From Chiloscyllium plagiosum (Eukaryota): a DNA stretch of 64,000 nucleotides. Under the pieces are notes generated by a model that was not told the DNA's origin, ran no database searches, and saw only the letters and a list, made by a program, of their open reading frames with translations. The position numbers were made by a program, and so were the translations under genes. This document shows, piece by piece, positions 759-54,695 of this stretch. Each line of letters begins with the position of its first letter. The first letter of the stretch is position 1. Where the stretch lies: positions 35,748,515-35,812,514 of the forward strand of contig NC_057736.1 in assembly GCF_004010195.1 (NCBI RefSeq). The letters are read 5' to 3'.

Positions 759-1699
759 ATTTATGCATAAATTCACAAGCCGCCAATCGAATGGCATAAA
801 CATCTTTTTTTAATATATTTTGAAAAGTTGCTGTACACTATTGCTCTGAACTAAGGTGACTTAAACGTTGCATTTAAAAGAATAGTATCGTTTAAATCCT
901 AAGATTTACAGCACAATTACTATCACAATGTTAATTCAGAATTTGACACAGTAATAAAAATACACAAATCCAACATTTATTAAGTGAATGTAGTTAAAGG
1001 AAAGAAAGTATGGAATCGTACCTCAATGTCTAAAGAACTAATAGTGGATGGATAATCATTTGTTTTTACACCCTTCAAAGTAGTTGTAATTTGATCTGTA
1101 CCTAAAGTTTGTGCTTCTTTCAGTTTTTCTTGGTTAACTTTTTTTTTATACACTGCTATTGTATGGTCACTTATTAAAGCTGCATGGAATCTGCAAATTC
1201 ACAGATCATATCTGATACCTTCATGTTGGAGGGAGAAATGCCACTTCAAGCAGTATTTCCAGGAACAAATAAGTTAACTGCTACTTTGAAGAAGAGTTCG
1301 TTCTTTACAAAAAAAATTGTCCTTTTTGATGCCATTTTTAGTATTTGTTTTAAAAAAGGTATCAACTGATTATACCCAGGTTTCCCTCTCCCTGTTGAGT
1401 TGAAAGATTGGACGGGACAAAAATAGTCTAATTATTATAATTTTAAAAGAGAAATACTTTTTAAATGAAAGAGTTTTAATTGAAACTAGCTCTGGAATTA
1501 TTACTGGAACACTTCTTTGCGGCACTAGAATAGGTGCAAACTGAGTGTTTATTGCCCTACCATGGTGAATATAGTGTAAACATACAACATTGTCAGGACC
1601 AGAGAATACATCATTCCATGGACCTCTTTGCAAAGAGGATTAACAGGGATTATATAAGTGTCACTTGCTAAATAAATTATATATTGTACTTGCACAGTA

Positions 1700-1705
1700 T
1701 TTATT
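1700..1705 (-). terminator. Candidate DNALI1 polyadenylation signal AATAAA (others at about 1548 and 976-981)
   Basis: First canonical AATAAA I found on the minus strand downstream of the DNALI1 stop. Confidence 0.5.
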
Positions 1706-1743
1706 CATCCATAGAATCTCTGCTCCATTTCTATTACTAGTCT

Positions 1744-2102
1744 GTTGTGGTTCTGTTTGCCGAGCTGGGAATTTGTGTTGCAGACATTTCGTCCCCTGTC
1801 TAGATGACATCCTCAGTGCTTGGGAGCCTCCTATGAAGCGCTTCTGTGATGTTTCCTCCGGCATTTATAGTGATTTGTATCTGCCGCTTCCGGTTGTCAG
1901 TTCTGGAACTGACTGACAACCGGAAGCGGCAGATACAAATCACTATAAATGCCGGAGGAAACATCACAGAAGCACTTCACAGGAGGCTCCCAAGCACTGA
2001 GGATGTCACCTAGACAGGGGACGAAATGTCTGCAACACAAATTCCCAGCTCGGCGAACAGAACCACAACAACGAGCACCCGAGGTACAAATCTTCTCACA
2101 AA
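1744..2102. mobile_element. Palindromic Penelope-like terminal-repeat insertion (family A) with hammerhead cores on both strands
   Basis: Inverted arms 1744-1901 and 1912-2069 with about 4 mismatches; 13-bp TSD ctattactagtct at 1731-1743 and 2103-2115; motif gca-CTGAGGA-t-gtcacc-tagaca-ggggac-GAAAtGTC-tgc. Confidence 0.85.
1780..1819 (-). ncRNA. Minimal type I hammerhead ribozyme motif, sense to DNALI1 (mirror copy on + at 1994-2033)
   Basis: CUGANGA core, stem II hairpin, GAAA, GUC cleavage triplet, 3-bp stem I gca/tgc. Confidence 0.65.
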
Positions 2103-2248
2103 CTATTACTAGTCTTTAGAGCATTGAGATTATATTCAATAGACTGAAACCTTTGCCTATATAATAACTTGTAAACAGTTTAAATTACAGTAATAGTATG
2201 AGAGCATAGTATACTTAAAAGTCAATATTGGAGAGCAAGTGCATAGTT

Positions 2249-2284
2249 TCATTTCCTTGGTGATATGATGCCTTCTAGTTGTGC
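2249..2284 (-). CDS. DNALI1: DNALI1 coding exon 6 (AQLEGIISPRK*)
   Basis: Acceptor cttttcttatcctag; matches the known DNALI1 C-terminus AQLEGIIAPKK; TGA stop; 36 nt. Confidence 0.95.
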   Translation of the reverse strand, partial: AQLEGIISPRK

Positions 2285-7270: not shown

Positions 7271-7672
7271 TTTCCTCATACATATTCATTTTAGTTCATT
7301 ACACAGTTGCTGAATCAGCTGTTAGTGAGCTTATAAAATGGCAATGATCCCTACTTCCTCAGTCACTTGCTCACGATTTGTTTTTGAGTGCATTGAAGAT
7401 TCAGAAAATATTGAACAAGGTGACCCCAAAACTGAGAAAATGCAAACCCTCATGTTTCATGTTGACATTTAACTAAATAGAGAAAATTTGTTTGTTTCAT
7501 TGTACCTCAAAATGAGGATTTACCAAAGGGGCTAATTTTATATTATTATATTTAATAATCCTCACCAACAGATGATACCAAAGTTGCAAAGGATAAAGTA
7601 AAATATATGGATACTTTGTCTAATCAGTTTGAATTAGAAAATACCAACTATAGCTTAATTTGTTTTGTTTAC

Positions 7673-7837
7673 CTTAAGCTGCTGGTTAGTCCGTTTGAGA
7701 AACTGTATTTCTTCTGCATGCTTCTTCTCCTCCACCTGACGTCTTTCATTCTCCCTTTTCTCTATGGCTTCACACTTCGCTTTCTGCTCGTTCAGTTGTC
7801 TCTCCAGTTCTTTCTTTTCTGCTTCCAAATCAATGAT
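7673..7837 (-). CDS. DNALI1: DNALI1 coding exon 5 (IIDLEAEKKELERQ...RTNQQLK)
   Basis: 165 nt; AG/GT boundaries; coiled-coil region near-identical to known DNALI1. Confidence 0.97.
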
Positions 7838-10880: not shown

Positions 10881-10937
10881 ACCAACCTACTCACATGGGC
10901 ACTGAATGAGGATTTTTAAATCAACCCAAATGCTTAC

Positions 10938-11116
10938 CTTCTTTTCCATGTCAGTTTTGCCCTCTTCTGCTTGTAAAGCTTTCCTCATCCCAAAAGCCAC
11001 ACTGCTTTCGTACAGTGTCTGATAGGCAGAAATGGTCATTCGGATCTCATCGCGGACTCGCAGCAACAGTAATCCTCGCTCGGCACAGTTTATGGTCACT
11101 TGCCTGATTAGTTCAT
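10938..11116 (-). CDS. DNALI1: DNALI1 coding exon 4 (DELIRQVTINCAERGLLLLRVRDE...KTDMEKK)
   Basis: 179 nt; AG/GT boundaries; diagnostic axonemal dynein light intermediate chain (p28) sequence. Confidence 0.98.
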
Positions 11117-13414
11117 CTATAAAATCCAATGAAAAATGCAAAACTCAGAAAATATCCTGTGTCTTTCACAGCACACATGTCACAACAACAGAATGCTGTG
11201 TCACTTTTTTTTAATGTAGTTTATGTTTTTAAATCAAGTACATGAATGAGGAACACAGCATATAATTTAAGTGCTTACTGAATGTGTGCCTTTTAATGCA
11301 TTTAAGATAATTTGACTGTTCAGTTGAGTGCTTTTCCATTCAAGGAACGTGCTTGAGTTTGGATGTGATGCTCCAAAGTTGAAGAGCTTGATTACTGTCA
11401 GATCCAAGCATGGCACACAGGAGGATTGCCAGTGAACACAGAAAGTACAGGAGCACGTAAGTGTCTTTCCAAGTGAAATTGGAAGAAAGAAATGAGGGGG
11501 TTACTAACATTTACTTTATTAAACCTCACTTAGCAAAGCTGGATTATCGATACTGGGTTTATAAACTCAATACTTAACTACTTTAATGCTAAACCCCTTG
11601 AGTTATGAGCATAAATCAGCACAGATGTGAACAAGACCTACCGCATGGCCAAGTCTCAAATCAATGTTAACTCAGATACATAGATGGCAGATGGGCGAGT
11701 CACCTGAATCTGACATTTGGCTTCTACCACTGTTTACAGTTGTCCCTTGCCAACTGAGAACACAGAATGGAACCATATTCATGCCTGAGAGATGGGTGTA
11801 ATAACAAGATTTGTGGCAAGGTTGAGCAAGTTTCTCACTAGGCAGCAGCAAGTTGCCAATTCAGCATTATTGCTTGTTCGATGCCTTCTTAATGGCAAAC
11901 TTGCCTCATTAATATTCAGCTTTCTCTCTTATCAAACACACCAACAAACTAGATGTCAGGAATTCTTGACATGTAACAAATTGGTACCAGCATGCATTAT
12001 GGGCACTGGCCACACACATTCTACATTCACAGACATTAGCATCTGACATGAGGCAGTCTCTAAAAATCCTCATGGGACATCAGTGATCCACTTACAGGAC
12101 AATACTGCACTGAAAATACTGCAGTGCGGACTTTACCAAGAACTGTCATTATAATACTGCTGCAAGGATACAGTGCCCCTTCCTCTGCCTTGCTTTGCCA
12201 TTTAACACATGCACAAACCCAGGAGGCTTATCCAGGTTGGCAGAAGTCCTCAATGACGCCAAGGGACATAGCCTTCACTTAGGCAGTGCCAACACAGTGA
12301 GTCAAGGCCAGCCTTGAAAAACACTTCAGGGGTTTAGACACAGTCAGTCACTGAGGAAATCAGAATATCAATGCCCTCCACATAGCAATGAGGAGGCAAA
12401 GGTGGGCAATGCACCACCTGTCTTTCTTCCCTATTGTGGGCTGTTTTCCACCTGGGATTTGAGAAAGGCAGAATGCAAGTGGGTGCCACAGCTGTTACTT
12501 TTGTTGCAAATAGGAAGAGTCCTGAATAACTGAATAGCTCATGCATAGGAACTGCAGGGTTAGTGGTGTCAGGAGTTTGGAGTAGGTGAGAGCAGTTGGG
12601 AGAGATATTGCAGGCAACAGTGAGAGTGGTAGAGTATAAGTCTTGGTGGGACTCTAGTACAGCAACAGAAATAGTGTGAGGTATCAGAGAGAAGATGCTG
12701 GCCAAGTGGAGCAAGTCATTCTACGCTGTAGAATATTCCTCTACACAACTGAAACTGGCCTCAGCTGGATGGTCTGGTGTTGTAGCCTCCACAGCTGGTC
12801 CTGGGCAAAGAGGGTATCCACATCTATACACCATCATTCTGCAGGGCTTCCAGATTCCTGTCAGCATAGCGAGTTGCCAATTTTCTCATTGCTGTGCTGG
12901 AACAAATGTCAGGGACTTTGCAGGGCATCTCTGACTGACAGAGTTTTCCTGGGTACATAATGGACTTTTAAAAATGGCACAAGACTTGCTGCTCTTTCAG
13001 TGGGTGCCACGTTGCTTCAGAAAGGACACGTGGTAATATTTAGATAAAATCAAATGAGAGGGAAGCCATAAGGGTGGGATGGGTAGTTAATGAGGTAGTT
13101 TAATAAGTTAAGACAAGATATTTCACTTCAGGCTTCACAGCAGGAACCAAGTGAAACTTGCACTTAGTCAATAAAACATAAGATTCATCACAGAATTTTA
13201 AATGTGTAGATATTTTGCTTCTGCACCGATGCATTAAACCATATTGTAACTGTGTTAAATTTTGTTCCTTGAGATTCACAAAGGGATTCTGATTAGAGAT
13301 TTTGCAATAAAAGCCAGATCATTGAATTTCTCTGAAGATTTGTTATTAACGTTTGTGCTTATAACAGATTATAACCATATTGACAAATGAGAAACCAGTC
13401 CTGAAGAGACTTAC

Positions 13415-13584
13415 CAAAGCATTGAGAGTATAGCTCCCTACGGACAGGGCAAATTCCAGTCTCTCGAGCTTGCCTCTGCTGCAGCTTGAGATCCAGTTGT
13501 TCCTGCAGATGGACAACATCAATCCGAGTGCAGGGAGTACTGGATACCTGCTGAATCCACAGCTGAGAATTCTCTGTCCATTCT
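13415..13584 (-). CDS. DNALI1: DNALI1 coding exon 3 (EWTENSQLWIQQVSSTPCTR...RELYSQCF)
   Basis: 170 nt; ttgcag acceptor and gtaagt donor; phases fit the neighbouring exons. Confidence 0.98.
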
Positions 13585-14479
13585 CTGCAACAAAATGTAA
13601 GCCACTGAGAGTTACAAATGAACTGGAATTGTGAAATTATCTTTCTTTTTGGAAATTGCTCTCCATCTGCTTTGTGTTTCTTTTTCTATCAATAGTATAT
13701 ACTTAAAGATTTTGTACTATTCAAGTCTTGTGTCAATCTTCTATTTGGAATATCGTCGAAGCCTGCCAGGATTGAACACAACGATGCCAAGCTGGTAGAG
13801 CACTGAACAGATGCACAAAAAAGCTTTCTTCCTACTTCCTAACAATTCTATTTTCCAACTCCATTGTGGAAGAGCACTCGTTCTGTCAGTCAGCCATCTT
13901 TGTGTTATCTTGCGTGAGGCTGCCAATCCAGTATCAGATGACTTTTGCTTTATGGTCACTGGGGACTGAGTTGAAACTCAAATTCAATGGATAACATTAA
14001 TCTCACTGGATCAACATCAACTGTACAAAACCTGGGATTCAGACTAATCTTAGCTTGAAATTAAAAGAGAGAAAACTAGAAACACTCAATCAGGTAGGCA
14101 GTATCTGTGAAGAGAGAGTTAACAGGCAGGATTTTGAGCTCCCAGAACTGTATAACTAAGGAAGTAGAGATAATCTGAAACTAAATAATGAGGGGCAAGG
14201 AATCAAATGTGGGAGGATGTGGCATATTACAGAGTGCAAGAAAGGACAACAGTATTCTGATAAATGGGGGTCAGGAAATACAGGAAGGGGCTAAGAAAAA
14301 CAAAACTAGGAAAAAATTAACAATCGAGGTTAGTTGTTAAAAAATAACAGAGACAAAATAAAAGCTCTGTACCTGAACGTGTGTAACATTCATAACAAAG
14401 TAAATGTTTGATGACAACCGACACTGAAGTGAATAAATATGATTGTACAGCATTATAGACACAAGGCTTAAGGATGACA

Positions 14480-15702: not shown

Positions 15703-17856
15703 CAGACCTGGGCATTTTACGGCCCACGGGCCCTTTGGTTGTTCCTGTCTGGCCCGCATGAGGTCAATCTTAAATTAGAACATAAATGAAAAAGTATTAA
15801 TGCCATGCACGCAATACAACTGTGTTGCTTTTGTTTTGAAAAGGATGCTTTTTTTATTTATGTATGGACATATATGCACGTGTATGTGCGTGTGTGCGTG
15901 AACAGCTAAAAGGGATGCTTGCTGGCTAGCCTTCAAAATGTCAGCTCACACCAAGACAAGTTATGTCATATCCCTCAAAATCACCAGAAAAAGCAAACCG
16001 TTTTCTGATGGAGAGTTTATTAAGGAGTGTTTGTTGGACTCTGCAGAACTAATATGCCCGGAGCAAAAGGAGGCATTTGAGAATGTGCCCCTCTCCCGTG
16101 CACTGTAACGAGAAGGATTGGGGACATCGCGAGAAATCTGGAGCTTCAGCTGCAGCACAAAGCGGTCAACTTTGACTTTTTTTTCCTTGGCTTTGGATGA
16201 GAGCTGCAACGTATGTGACACAGCCCAGCTACTCACCTTGGTATGTGGGATAACTACGGACTTTAAAATCACGGAGGAGCTGGCAGCCATGCAGTCAATG
16301 AAAGGAACAACAATTGGTAATGATTTGTTCACGGTGGTAAATGCATGTTTGGACACATTGAGACTAAAATGGGACAAGCTGGCAAGCTGATGTGACAACG
16401 GATAGTTGTCCAAATCTCACGGGAAAAAATGTTGGACTCTTAAAGAGAATGCAGGATAAAGTAACAGAAATTGACCCTGAACAGAAATTGGTATTTTTGC
16501 ATTGTATTATACATCAGGAAGTGTTGTGTAAGTCAGTGTTAAAAATTAACCATGTGGTTAATGTTGTAACTAAAATAGTTAACTTCATCAGGGCAAGAGC
16601 TTTGAATCACAGGCAGTTTGTTGCACTTTTGGAGGAAAATGAGACTGAACATCGTGACATAGGCACCACACAGCTGTCAGGTGGCTCAGCCTGGACAAAA
16701 TGCTGAAAAATGTACGGGACCTGAGAGGAGAGATTCAAGATTTCTGTGTGAAGAAAGGGAATGGCATTCCACAGCTTTCAGATGCAGACTGGATTGCAGA
16801 TCTTGGTTTTGCTGTTGATGTGACTGCACTTATGAATGAACTAAATGTGAAACTGCAGTGTAAGGGCCCTTTTGTGCATGAAATGTACAACTTGGTGAAG
16901 GTTTTTATTAGAAAGTTGCAGCTTCTCTCAAGCCAAATGGAGGACAACATTCTCACTCACTTGCCAACACTGAAGGAAACCACATCTTCAGCTGATCACC
17001 TCCACAGGTACTCATCTATGTTAGAAGTCACCTATGGTGACTTTTCAAGGCGATTTCAAGACTTTAAAATGGTTGAGAATGAAATGCACATGATTTTTTT
17101 CCCCATTTACATGCAATGTGGAGAATGCACCTAATGATGTTCAGCTTGAACTCATTGACCTGCAGTCAGACACACTTCTGGCAAAGTACTTTAGGTCAGT
17201 CTCACTGTTTGATTTTTACTCTTCCCTCAAAGAGGAGAACTTTTCACACATGAGGAGGCATGCTCAGAAGATTCTAGTCCTTTTTGGATCTACCTATATA
17301 TGCGAACAGACATTCTCAGTGATGAAGTTCAACAAATCCAAATACAGATCCTCTATCACTGATGATCACCTCTCAGCTGTCCTTCGCATATCCACCTCAG
17401 ACATTCAACCAGATTTCAGTGCACTTGTTCAAGCCCAAAACAGACTGGCTTTTTCTCACTAAACAAGTAAAATTAACTGAAAAACATCAAAAGCACTTAT
17501 TGCTTTTTGTATAGAATTGTTTGTTGTTTTTAATACTGAACAATAATGAAACAACTTCTCATTATTGGGTTGTGAGATTAACATGTTAAAAATAAAATGA
17601 AATACTGAAATTATTGTTTTTACTGTTTATTTCTTCTATATTTGACCTACTCCACAATTTCATATTTTTATTGTAACAGAATATCCTTATTCTTTTGATT
17701 ATAAGTTTCAGTGCAAAACTATATAATTTAGTACATTTTACAATGGGAGAAAATTAATACTGAGCAAAATTGTGTTCAACTTATTGTTGGTTCAGCCCTC
17801 CAACACAACTCAGGTTTCTCATATGGCCCCTTGGAAGAATTAATTGCCCATCCCGG
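15703..17856 (+). mobile_element. hAT (Buster/Charlie, GTF2IRD2-like) DNA transposon with frameshifted transposase
   Basis: 8-bp TSD ttcTAtgt at 15695-15702 and 17857-17864; imperfect TIRs cagacctgggca / tgcccatcccgg; motifs FSLALDES, TTD, HCIIHQE, FGSTYICEQTFS. Confidence 0.93.
15945..17462 (+). pseudogene. Disrupted hAT transposase (four ORF pieces; no N-terminal BED finger visible)
   Basis: ORFs 16118-16390, 16392-16706, 16700-17134 and 17118-17462 are collinear transposase segments in different frames. Confidence 0.9.
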
Positions 17857-35015: not shown

Positions 35016-35127
35016 TGAAACAATAATCTCTACTGGTTGCCATGTGAGGTTTTTTTTTTAACCAATTGTCTGTCAATTTCTGGCTGTGTCATGACTTGCG
35101 AAATTAGATTTTTCTCATTGCGTTCAG

Positions 35128-35735
35128 GAACGGCATGACCATTCGCAACGGGATCATGCTGAGAGACGACACAGAGACCACTCCGATAGAAATGGACACC
35201 GGCGCAAGAAGAACAGTGACCGAGAGCGACACAGAGAATGTTCAGACCGGGGGCGAGGCCACAACAAAAGGAATGGCAGCTCTCACACAGAAGCTGGCGT
35301 GAGTGGCCGAGACAGGGAGGCTCAGCTCCTCAGCACCCAGCAGGCCGAGCGAGAGTATTACAATGAGAGAAGGCGTCAAAACCGTAATCAGTGCCCCCTG
35401 CTCAATGATAAGAATCCTGCCTCTGAGTCAAATGACAGCCAGGTTCCTAGTGGCAATGCAGCCCAAGTGAAAGAGGAGCCAAATTTTGAGCTGTCTGGTG
35501 CCCTCGTGGAAGACACAAACACCTTTCGTGGAGTGGTGATAAAATACTGTGAACCACCCGAGTCCCGGATCCCAAGGAAACGATGGCGTCTTTACCCATT
35601 CAAGAATGATGAACCACTTCCAGTCATGCACATTCATCGTCAGAGTGCCTATCTCTTGGGTCGACAGCGTAGGGTAGTGGATATCCCAATTGACCATCCT
35701 TCCTGCTCCAAGCAACATGCAGTGCTACAATACAG
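35128..35735 (+). CDS. SNIP1: SNIP1 coding exon 2 (ERHDH...EPNFELSGAL...WRLYPFKND...SCSKQHAVLQYR)
   Basis: 608 nt; FHA-domain motifs GR, DHPSCSKQHA; AG/GT boundaries. Confidence 0.97.
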
Positions 35736-35816
35736 GTTGGTGTTTAAAAAGCTGTTAATGTAAGATTGTGAGGAGTGGGGCTAAACTGGATTGCTATGTG
35801 GGCTCTAGCGTGGACA

Positions 35817-36065
35817 GGGTGAAAGTGAGTACTGCAGATGCTGGAGATCAGAGTCAAGATTAGAGTGGTGCTGGAAAAGGACAGGAGGTCAGGCAACATC
35901 CGAGGAGCAGGAAAATCGACGTTTCGGGCAAAGGTCCTTCCTGATGAAGTGCTCATGCCCGAAACGTCGATTCTCTTGCTCCTTGGATGCTGCCTGACCT
36001 GCTGCACTTTTCCAGCAACACATTTTCAGCTCTGATCTCCAGCATCTGCAGTCCTCACTTTCTCC
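35817..36065. mobile_element. Palindromic Penelope-like insertion (family B) in SNIP1 intron 2
   Basis: Inverted arms; imperfect TSD agcgtggaca / agcatggaca; CTGATGA...GAAACGTC at 35941-35968. Confidence 0.85.
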
Positions 36066-37837
36066 AGCATGGACAAATTGATTGAATGGCTCCCTGTGCC
36101 GTAAATGACTAAATCTAACTGGGACTTTGCATTGATCTGATATCAGTCGATCTGATGCAAATCCCTTTGGATTTCCTGGTTGTTACCCGTCCCCCATTTT
36201 ATCAGTCACCTTCTATTCGCTGTCCAAGGTTCTCTCTCCCACTTTCTGTTATAGGAAATAGAGAGATTGCAAAATGATTTTTCTTTTTCTCAATGGACAG
36301 CAGTTACTATAGTACAGTCTTTCCATGAAAAGCAGTTAGTTATATTAAAAAACTACTTAAAAAAAACCTAAACAAACATCCAATTAAGAACTGAGCTCAT
36401 GATCACAGTGATAGTTTCCTTACTGAGCAATAACTGTAAAGGGCTTGATGTTTCCTTGGGATAGAGAAACTGGACTCTTGGGCTCTTGATATTCTGGAAC
36501 TAACGAATGAACTTACATTTCCGAGTCACCCTGAGTCACTGCATAGCATTTTATAATCAATACAGTAGTTTTGAAATGTAGCTACTGTTGTATTTTCGTA
36601 AATGTGACAGCAGTTTTATTTATGGATTTAACAAGTACACTTTTAGTGATGGAGCAGTGAATGGGAAGCAGGCAATGTTTATCAAAATGTTTGGCTTGGG
36701 GCATTAAATGAATGGAAGTGGTTTGTGAGTGAGTAGATTTTACATACTATGATAATTTTGGGTTTGACAGACCATAGCTTTTGTCCAATTCCACAGTCCA
36801 GTACAAAAGTGGTTGTTTTAGCAGTCTGTTACCCTATTTTTATTTCTCTAAATCCCCTTTTGAAAGCATCTCCATCACCCTTTGGTACTTTGAGAGAAAT
36901 ACTTAGGTGTAATAGTTAAAATGTATGGTTTCAAGGTGCATGTGTCAATGATCTGATTTTATTTAGCTAGATTGAGCAAAGTTAATGGGTAGCTTTGCAT
37001 TACACTTTGTGCTGTGATCACTTTTACCAAGATTAAATTTATTCAGTCAATTGCTTCTAGTTCTTTATGTTAATTCTTCAAGATGGTTTTTTTTTTATCA
37101 TAGTTATTAGGGTGCTGAAGGAGGCCATTTGTCCTCTTGAGTACATGCTGGTTCTCTGTAGATCAGTTTGATTCACCCTACTTTCCTTCTGTCATCTTGT
37201 AAGCATATTTCCCTCTAACACCATTCAACATTGACACATCCTGTGCAGCTATATTTTGCTAGGAGAAATTTTGGAGGTTGTCTTCAGCTACGGAAGTGTT
37301 TTTGTCATTTGCTGCTTTCATCGAATTCGGGTGCATTTAGGGTTCCTGTTTCAGTCAAGGAGACATTCCAGTCTCTGACAGTGCTGCTGAAACCTGCCTG
37401 CATGCAGGTGAATACAGACAGCACAAAGTTACTTTATTGCAAGTTCTTTTCTCCTTTCCTTCCACATGTTTTTGCCCTCCTCTCTTGTATGGACTAACAG
37501 TCTCCCTCCCACAGTAGCTTTTAAAAAATATCATAGTTTATTGTAGCTATCTCTGATGCCTGGATATGCCTATTAATACTGTTAGTTGAGGGACCTGGGA
37601 GCCTCATTGGGTCTTCATTTCGGTGGTCAAGGATAAAGCTACACTTTGCATCTCACTGGGTCTTTCTTGTGGTGTAACTTTGGGTTGAGATTGTTAGCTC
37701 CTTTTAACTTGCATTTAGTAAAAGCTCTGTATAGTTCTTCCTATTTTCACGAGACTGGAGTAGAAATTACAAAACCTTATATCATTGTATCGCAGGTGGT
37801 ATGCAGAATAACATGCTTTTTGTTTTGCCCCCTGCAG

Positions 37838-38096
37838 ACTTGTGGAGTTCACACGGAATGATGGCACACCTGGCAGGAGGGTGAGACCGTACATCATCGA
37901 CCTGGGTTCGGCCAATGGCACATACCTTAACAATCAGCGCATTGAGTCACAGCGATATTATGAACTCAAAGAAAAGGATCTGCTGAAATTTGGCTTCAGC
38001 AGCAGGGAGTACGTCATTCTACATGAATTCTCGGATACTGCTGAGGTGGATGCAAAAGAAGGGCAGCATGATGAGGATGAGGAAGTTGAAAGTTAA
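37838..38096 (+). CDS. SNIP1: SNIP1 last coding exon (LVEFTR...YIIDLGSANGTYLN...FGFSSREYV...EVES*)
   Basis: ctgcag acceptor; FHA C-terminal half; TAA stop; total CDS 1134 nt. Confidence 0.97.
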
Positions 38097-52387: not shown

Positions 52388-52732
<345 letters not shown>

Positions 52733-53847
52733 TAATGCTAAATGTCTGGAATGGTCATTTTGCTTATATAATATTTTTCAAACAAATGAAAAAAATTACG
52801 TTCAAGTTTAATTTTTTACTTTACTAGGCCAACTGTTGCACAGTGAACTTTCAGAAGTCTCAAACATGAAGCAGGCAGTTCTGTACATTAAAAAACCAAA
52901 ATGAATTCATAAATGTTTCCAATAACCAGTTACCAAACATGTTCCTAAGTACATAACTGAGTTGTGATGGTCTTTGGATCAGTCTCTGATCCTTATCATG
53001 TTAACTTCCATCAAGCTGGTTGAGTACTTGGGACCACTAAGTCGGCTTTGTCAACTCTGACTGAAGGCCTGGGAGTGCGACTTCTGTTGTTGACCACCGT
53101 GCCCTGACTGTTTGTGCTGGTGTTCATTGTAAACGAGGATCAGTTGATTTTTTCCACAGCTTAACAATTGACAGGCACTGACAACTGAGCTGGCAGTCAA
53201 AGAATGACTATCGAGGGCACTGAGGGATAGAATTGTACCCAGACAATATTTAGCACCTTCATGAGAAGTTTGAAAATTGCTGCAGGAAAATCTTAGTTTC
53301 TTCTCAGGACGGTGCCTGTATCATGACTGAAAGTTACACACTTCGAAGGTTACTGACGCTAATTAGAGAGATGGTGTGAATCTAAATTTTTGAGAATGTT
53401 GGTCATAAAGTAATGGTAGCATTGTGCTCTGAATGTAGGACATTTTATAAGAAATAGTTTGGAGTACCAGTATGCTTCATGACAACATTTCGGGGAGTGT
53501 TTTGACTTGGCTTTATGGTTTGACTTGGAATAAATATGTTTGTAACTGGCAAAATCAATATTTTGTTCTCCCCGTATTTTCTTTAACTCATTTCATTCTG
53601 TGGAATCTACACTAGACAAAAGTGGACACCTTACTCCTGAAGGCCTGCCAATGCAAATAGTTACACAGTTGATGGAGGGGAACTCTTTCACATATCTCCT
53701 CCCTGTTAGGAGACACCTGGCTGGTTAAGGGAGCGATGATCATAGTATCAATACAAAGGAAGTTTGTATACTTAACTATTAAATGGTAAATTCCTTGGTA
53801 TTAAATGGTAACCTGCCTGGTTATTGGTTTTCTGTGTTATGTTTCAG

Positions 53848-53935
53848 AAACACTAACAGTAAAAATGATAGAAGGAATAGGAAATTTAAAGAAGCAGAAC
53901 GTCTCTTTAGCAAGTCATCCGTTACTTCAGTAGCA
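53848..53935 (+). CDS. MEAF6: MEAF6 coding exon 3 ([29 protein letters not shown])
   Basis: 88 nt; AG/GT boundaries. Confidence 0.98.
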
Positions 53936-54025
53936 GTGAGTAAAATAAACTTGTACTTGATCATAAAATACATAATATTTGCAAATGCAATTTTATATTT
54001 AACAGTGATTTCACATCTGTTACAG

Positions 54026-54071
54026 GCAGTGAGTGCTTTAACTGGTGTCCAAGACCAAATGGTGGAAAAGC
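54026..54071 (+). CDS. MEAF6: MEAF6 coding exon 4 ([15 protein letters not shown])
   Basis: 46 nt; AG/GT boundaries. Confidence 0.96.
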
Positions 54072-54695
54072 GTAAGTTTTAGAAATAAGTCCCCTTTCAT
54101 GTTGATATAATACATACTTTTCCACTTGAAATTTGACTGAAAGTAGGTGTTGTACGAGGGTTTTCTGCTGTAAAGCATATGTTTGAGGAGGGGGGAGTGG
54201 GTTATGGGCTGGTTCCAGAAGAAGAGAGATGCTTTGATTAATGTTCTGTTGAATTAGTTCCACCGTTTAATGCATTAAACTGAACACATCTTTGACACCC
54301 TCAGATCTATTTGTTTTATTGTTTGCTATTATAAGTACTTTGTCAGTGAAATCAAAGCTATTGCAGTAAAATTGGGAACAATAAGAACTTAAAATAAGGT
54401 TAAAAACTTTGCCATGTCTTCAAAAAGCCAATAGTACAGTTCATTCAGCATGTTTCACAAAATGTTGGTATGGATTATTTTACACATGGAAGTAAGTTGG
54501 AAAGTGTATGGAGATATTTATGATGCTTTCAAAACAGAAGCATCTCAGCAACAATTTTTAACTGGAATAATTAACGAGCAGTATGCAATTGACTTTGCTT
54601 TTCTTACTTGATACTGGGGTGATTTGGGAATTGCACTGGTTTAAGCAAATCTGTTTTTTTCAAATTTGCATTTTGTGTGTGAATCACTTGATTAG

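Follow-up and report, generated by a model that had tools for sequence, protein, structure and literature searches.

Inverted pairs of Alu elements in mammalian 3′UTRs are a case of transposon-made long double-stranded RNA, a potential substrate of ADAR or Staufen. For Penelope-like elements, the available text of two papers (PMC3846280; PMC8557442) describes insertions with an inverted pLTR, a tail on one side only and a target-site duplication (TSD). According to the accessible part of PMC4209133, minimal hammerheads assayed in vitro showed low cleavage when dimeric or trimeric and none when single; a palindrome at positions 15.2–16.2 is named there as a consistent feature, and pairs of motifs on opposite strands, 100–700 bp apart, are described. 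Falsitrons, as presented in the available sections of PMC8240250, are skips that arise during reverse transcription, with a hairpin plus a direct repeat as their described signature. Here we report a doubly truncated, head-to-head Penelope-like end in the 3′UTR of DNALI1, with a predicted 158-bp RNA duplex. The explanation that we favor, with considerable confidence, is that this insertion is likely a tolerated passenger whose hammerhead, mutated and lacking a partner, would leave the mRNA uncut.

The window, by which we mean the whole 64-kb stretch of DNA that was analyzed, carries DNALI1 on its minus strand. The PF10211 profile matched three exons of the gene (13416–13595, 10935–11126 and the penultimate exon at 7667–7837, all minus strand), and the second of these had DNALI1 as its best match among PDB chains (E = 1.6e-31). 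The coding part of the last exon (2249–2284, minus strand) reads AQLEGIISPRK and ends with a stop at 2251–2249. Convergent with DNALI1 are the last exons of GNL2 (L020:5050–5310 and L021:7546–7983, both plus strand; identity from a PDB match, E = 1.4e-07), which end ~4.6 kb to the left of the window. Plus-strand frames at 35095–38093 and 52388–54079 are presumably SNIP1-like and MEAF6-like, and we take the gene order around DNALI1 to resemble that in human. Positions 1–758, just past the end of the UTR, are in our assumption the 3′ end of a CR1-like LINE with a SINE-like insert; the contig of run X15 enters this segment by ~30 nt. Fragmented frames at 15964–17459 presumably resemble a DNA transposase of the hAT/SPIN type. 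A second, more divergent multi-exon PF10211 gene was found elsewhere in the genome (G000:C3:67987257–67993268; L015, L016, L018); protist p28 chains and DNALI1 were roughly equally close to it, and one of its exon matches contained a TAG.

The insertion occupies 1744–2102 (359 bp) and is flanked by an exact 13-bp direct repeat, the left copy of the TSD lying at 1731–1743 and the right copy at 2103–2115. A repeat finder returned inverted arms at 1743–1901 and 1912–2070 with 97% identity and a 10-nt spacer, so that the TSD-flanked 359-bp insertion with 158-bp inverted arms given in the preliminary description stands. The left arm (1744–1901, minus strand) is a 5′-truncated Penelope-like 3′ end, or pLTR, in the sense of the DNALI1 mRNA and without a tail. 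At the 10-nt junction (1902–1911) the two truncated 5′ ends meet. The second arm (1912–2069, plus strand) is the same element end antisense to the DNALI1 mRNA, and it is followed by a one-sided 33-bp Penelope ‘tail’ (2070–2102, plus strand). The arms differ at 4 of 158 bp, all of them transitions; on the mRNA strand three of these mismatches are G-U pairs and the remaining one, at 1758, is A-C. On the plus strand the second arm encodes the last 33 codons of the element frame, with the stop inside hammerhead helix II. This overlap of frame and hammerhead (1912–2013, plus strand, ending in STEDVT and the stop) was also seen in L112, L022 and L023. A start of the arms at the ribozyme cut was considered and rejected, as the arm start lies ~118 nt upstream of the cut. 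A single integration event would have produced the two short copies, the one-sided tail and the staggered-cut TSD before the lineages discussed below split.

The element belongs to a very abundant family. Searching the genome with one arm gave 951 candidate matches, the best 40 of which were 96–100% identical, and the hammerhead 27-mer had at least 5,540 exact copies (4,701 of the ACGT form and 839 of the ATGT form) compared to 0 for the reversed control. On their upstream side, longer family copies run on into a frame bearing a CxxC-YIGQT motif, which we take to be GIY-YIG-like, and they adjoin a reverse transcriptase fragment whose RVT_1 match (E = 2.3e-4) fell below the cut-off. The GIY-YIG endonuclease profiles of Pfam and NCBIfam gave no match to the element frame. 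Placement in the Penelope/Poseidon clade is our guess. Two longer inverted family insertions, L112 (G000:C1:98619000–98623200) and L113, keep reverse transcriptase and endonuclease fragments and are broken by runs of N.

To describe the usual layout of the family we took the first 30 loci each from the lists of ACGT-form and ATGT-form copies and dropped 6 of the 60 as second arms, leaving 54 insertions; since they were chosen by an exact 27-mer match, this sample is skewed toward well-kept copies. An arm of at least 40 nt on the opposite strand was present in 26 of the 54, and 20 of these 26 inverted-arm copies had a TSD of 10–14 nt in a crude search without a chance control. With a longer reference, 24 copies were scored as inverted, and the tail was on one side only in 23 of them. 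In 6 of these 24 (6/54 of the sample), both arms were at least 100 nt long and no more than 20 nt separated them at the junction. Among 126 listed positions on one contig there were 18 pairs within 3 kb, compared to 0.44 expected by chance, and 17 of the 18 had the same orientation as the DNALI1 insertion. Because 26 of 54 sampled insertions share the inverted arm and the same layout is in print (PMC3846280; PMC8557442, as far as their available text goes), the layout is ordinary: the head-to-head stub is an ordinary insertion product of an abundant Penelope-like family. The preliminary reading of the insertion as the end piece of a Penelope-like element carrying a minimal type I hammerhead holds. 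In run X19, a poly(A) library, element-sense depth reached 126 at 1920–2104 with flanks that varied after 2071 and 2104; this depth and the varied flanks indicate that many other family ends are present in polyadenylated RNA.

From 24 listed runs, which included no direct RNA sequencing, we aligned six contig runs (X1, X2, X3, X5, X15 and X16), one raw poly(A) single-cell run (X19, ~2/100 sampled) and X20, from which 0 reads aligned. X3 and X5 come from two studies of organism B, a relative ~4% diverged from the source organism, and X15 and X16 are two samples of one study. In all six contig runs, contig alignments stopped at 2286. Because the last bases are AAG in the upstream exon and TAG in the intron, the AG at 2286 is common to both, and we infer that the contigs are spliced cDNA because they stop exactly where spliced cDNA would end. 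The distal contigs covered 797–1770 (X3 and X5), 727–1759 (X15), 762–1767 (X16) and 998–1729 (X1). Both insertion junctions were covered in X3 and X5, and the X15 and X16 contigs chained from the acceptor at 2286 to 727 and 762, respectively. However they arose, the joins in X15 and X16 connect the last exon, in spliced form, with the distal UTR on one molecule. The stub thus sits inside the transcribed DNALI1 3′UTR in both the source organism and its relative. Taken together, the contigs and X19 reads put this UTR at 797–2248 (minus strand), a length of at least ~1.45 kb with the insertion inside it.

The span of 1744–2102 that had been proposed for the UTR is therefore covered, and the transcripts did not end upstream of 2102. 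The AATAAA at 1705–1700 (minus strand), which the preliminary description took as the mRNA end, is present in the sequence, and an unbroken contig read through it in each of the six contig runs. The likely main poly(A) signal is instead an ATTAAA at 809–814 (minus strand), with the X3 and X5 contigs both ending at 797; this places the poly(A) site ~1 kb from the hammerhead motif, not 75 nt. In X19, ~10 minus-strand RNA reads were found at 761–1066 and none at 1615–1736; the strand convention of this run agreed with one last-exon read and with the element-sense reads. Minor use of the AATAAA at 1705–1700 could occur, since poly(A) ends as near to the stem as 60 nt may be captured poorly in X19.

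Two other sources of these contigs were rejected. The 727–1729 contigs are not convergent GNL2 transcripts, given that GNL2 ends ~4.6 kb to the left, the X19 reads are minus-strand and, in X15 and X16, the contigs connect with the DNALI1 exon. Nor does a retrocopy or a second haplotype fit, both insertion flanks being single-copy in the assembly. X19 also contained ~2 plus-strand RNA reads at 1310–1614, upstream of a plus-strand AATAAA at 1671–1676; these possibly reflect antisense or GNL2 read-through transcription overlapping the DNALI1 UTR.

The hairpin was partly skipped in some contigs, the stretch concerned being 1760–2080 (minus strand). The X15 contig joined 2079 to 1759, skipping 319 nt (1760–2078) with the 5-nt direct repeat CTCGG at both ends and with non-canonical junction ends, GT..GG or CT..AG. 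The X16 contig joined 2081 to 1766, skipping 314 nt (1767–2080) with one shared letter. The spliced contig of X2 had eight unmatched letters before 2079, and the left contig of the same run was intact to 1771. X3 and X5 were intact at both junctions and showed no skip. X1 had a coverage hole at 1729–2083, which we left out of the skip evidence. Because the differing junctions, the direct repeat and non-canonical ends at the X15 junction, and the very stable hairpin match the signature in the available part of PMC8240250, reverse-transcriptase template switching is the most likely origin of the skip contigs. The enzyme would enter the stem for 16–24 nt and then jump to the single-stranded tail just past the stem. 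Skips of this origin would lend indirect support to formation of the hairpin in RNA.

The same contigs could be read as splicing. The hairpin would then be removed in vivo as a cryptic 314-nt GT–AG intron (2078–1765), giving two 3′UTR isoforms, with and without the duplex and the hammerhead. The X16 skip would be this intron if the minus strand of that individual read A at 2080; 2 of 50 family tails carry this CpG transition. The AG at 1766–1765 is compatible with both the X15 and the X16 junctions, the X2 spliced contig also departs from the reference at 2079, and in both X15 and X16 it is the skip form that follows on from the upstream contig. However, the 319-nt X15 junction is not GT..AG, X3 and X5 show no skip, and the intron reading of X16 depends on a putative A at 2080. 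Five of the nine donor positions agree with the consensus, or six given the variant, a degree of agreement shared by 35 of the 88 GT sites in the UTR, and the acceptor has a pyrimidine run of just 5 nt and lies 22 nt inside the duplex. We consider splicing of the hairpin unlikely.

Long palindromes are prone to deletion, and this we counted in favor of a genomic origin of the skip forms, in which the unstable palindrome would have been deleted at microhomologies in some individuals. The X15 contig also crosses the joint unbroken, as a genomic deletion would have it. Against this, two samples of a single study would have had to undergo independent deletions 5 nt from each other; X2 has an intact left junction to 1771 along with the break at 2079; and both flanks are single-copy in the assembly, with no deleted haplotype. 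Genomic deletion thus appears very unlikely, and we retain template switching as the most likely origin of the skips.

The minus-strand RNA from 2250 to 1690 had a predicted folding energy of –372.9 kcal/mol (z = –33.7 compared to 100 shuffles). In the prediction for the full UTR, the hammerhead motif was paired to the antisense arm with a probability of 0.9996, and forcing helices I and II open cost a predicted 81.7 kcal/mol; these values are equilibrium predictions without helicases or editing. As modeled, the arms would pair within the mRNA and lock the hammerhead motif. Majority editing was not detected in the outer 16–28 nt of the 3′ arm, where the X15, X16 and X2 contigs, which drop minority variants, had 0 differences, the A-C mismatch at 1758 included. 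Inner-arm reads were not assignable to the DNALI1 copy as opposed to other family copies. X19 element-sense reads from other copies (1933–1939) had A-to-G changes at 1938 (8/32) and 1939 (5/32), absent from the X1 and X15 contigs; these may point to editing or to another expressed copy that carries variants of its own.

The sense arm contains a minimal hammerhead motif at 1780–1819 (minus strand, as are all of its parts). Helix I is formed by 1819–1817 and 1782–1780, followed by CUGAGGA (1816–1810), an inserted U (1809), helix II (1808–1791, with a private C-to-U change at 1804), GAAA (1790–1787), UG where the family has CG (1786–1785), and UC (1784–1783), with the predicted cut after 1783. 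The motif agrees with the published minimal descriptor in its intact CUGANGA / GAAA..UH core, the extra base after A9 and the G10.1–C11.1 pair. The identification rests on this descriptor because Rfam returned no hammerhead, neither over the whole window at the gathering score, where there was no match at all, nor over 1700–2150 at E ≤ 10, where generic hairpin models below gathering appeared that we read as shape matches. An mRNA-sense core ~75 nt before the AATAAA had been described previously, and our coordinates agree with it (1819–1780, with the cut 78 nt before 1705–1700). The core letters are unaltered, but two changes had been overlooked, AUGU in place of the ACGU palindrome and the private C-to-U in helix II. 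The AUGU form, found in both arms, has lost the dimer palindrome that the family majority keeps (ACGU, 4,701 versus 839 copies), with a predicted helix energy of +2.6 compared to –1.7 kcal/mol for ACGU. The C-to-U at 1804 is private to the sense arm, with C in 74 of 75 family arms, and weakens helix II from a predicted –4.2 to –1.7 kcal/mol. The isolated motif was not predicted to fold as a hammerhead, and neither was an intact family copy. No second hammerhead of the same sense was found in the window, the sole other match being the antisense arm. X19 showed no pile-up of molecule ends at the motif, with zero DNALI1-specific reads covering it.

These properties bear on the earlier proposal that the mRNA alternates between two states, a duplex hiding the ribozyme and an active hammerhead by which the poly(A) tail would be lost, as a transposon-donated stability control. 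In its favor are an intact core in sense orientation, a UTR that includes the motif, and a precedent in a Clec2d 3′UTR hammerhead that cut reporter expression by 80%, according to the available text of PMC2950038. Yet the sense copy is alone, and a single minimal hammerhead gave no cleavage in vitro in the accessible part of PMC4209133. The palindrome is lost, helix II is predicted to be weakened, and the monomer is not predicted to fold as a hammerhead on its own. The near-complete predicted pairing with the antisense arm, the cost of opening, the earlier transcription of the antisense arm and the deletion of the motif in both skip forms also weigh against a switch, as do the ordinary layout of the insertion and the lack of a clear sign of selection described below. 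We consider the toggle extremely improbable; all predictions point one way, and they make a ribozyme switch unlikely. If the insertion affects DNALI1 at all, the effect would be that of long 3′UTR duplexes in general and not one of ribozyme cleavage.

We compared the insertion in the two organisms. Both junctions are present in organism B (contigs 797–1770 and 2073–2286), with an internal sequence inseparable from that of other copies; where we looked for an empty site, this relative proved to have the insertion. The insertion is therefore older than the split of the lineages. Over 986 nt, the UTRs of organism B and the source showed 36 substitutions and 20 gap letters. Under neutrality, the divergence between two arms that started out identical should be no smaller than that between the UTRs of the two organisms. 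The 4/158 mismatches between the arms did not depart from the 36/986 between the organisms (P(≤4) = 0.31). Compared to the pooled family (5.9%), the arm mismatch of 2.5% leaned mildly toward higher identity (P = 0.04), and in 3 of the 13 comparable copies the arms were at least as similar. The arm identity is consistent with neutral decay, without a clear sign of maintained pairing, and the later decay would have proceeded at the neutral rate via CpG-type transitions. Some observations speak against a passenger. Selection would likewise explain why the insertion has been kept in a transcribed UTR of two lineages; in addition, arm identity is higher than in the pooled family, three of the four mismatches are G-U and not A-C, the catalytic core letters are intact, and the X16 skip has the length of a GT–AG intron.

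What is new here is that contigs place a Penelope stub inside the DNALI1 3′UTR in two lineages; the layout of the stub itself is already known. A literature search with few subscription journals covered found nothing on the DNALI1 insertion locus or on Penelope fold-backs in shark 3′UTRs. On our favored reading, a near-perfect 158-bp fold-back of a very common Penelope family can persist in an expressed 3′UTR in two lineages, and tight long-hairpin stubs of this kind (6/54 sampled; likely hundreds per genome) can yield false 3′UTR introns and coverage holes in cDNA. If the splicing were true, the locus would be a clean case of a transposon hairpin turned regulatory intron, the fold-back having been co-opted. 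The junction, 170 nt after the stop, could then trigger nonsense-mediated decay, and excision would neutralize the transposon double-stranded RNA and could tune a cilia/sperm dynein transcript by this route. If the ribozyme did cut, it would provide the in vivo evidence for minimal Penelope hammerheads that the available part of PMC4209133 states is lacking.

Compared to inverted Alu pairs, the DNALI1 hairpin would come from one insertion event, with a 97% fold-back and a 10-nt loop. It resembles the falsitrons of Schulz et al. (2021, PMC8240250, available sections) in that a stable hairpin is skipped in cDNA, over ~320 nt compared to a median of 353 nt, and, at the X15 junction, in the 5-nt direct repeat and non-canonical ends. 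It differs from them in the single shared letter at the X16 junction and in downstream jump points 16–24 nt inside the stem. The mammalian Clec2 3′UTR hammerheads likewise lie between the stop codon and the poly(A) site of a host mRNA; in the accessible text of PMC2950038 they lower reporter expression and are conserved across mammals, whereas the DNALI1 motif is minimal, mutated, predicted to be masked and located in a young repeat. With the minimal type I hammerheads of metazoan Penelope-like elements (Cervera and De la Peña 2014, PMC4209133, accessible part) it shares the CUGANGA and GAAA-NN-UH core, the extra base after A9, the G10.1–C11.1 pair, a long helix II and a short helix I. Unlike those motifs, it has a non-palindromic UG at 15.2–16.2, a helix I of only 3 bp and no second sense copy. 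There is also a likeness to the EN+ Penelope-like insertions with an inverted pLTR, such as Adineta Pen2a_Av (PMC3846280; PMC8557442, Fig. 2 legend; text available in part), which share the head-to-head terminal copies, the 5′ truncation, a one-sided tail of 30–40 bp, a TSD around the whole unit and a hammerhead in the pLTR. Unlike the Adineta type, the DNALI1 stub has no coding body between its arms and so forms a near-perfect fold-back, its TSD is 13 bp compared to 8–10 bp, and it lies within the 3′UTR of a host gene.
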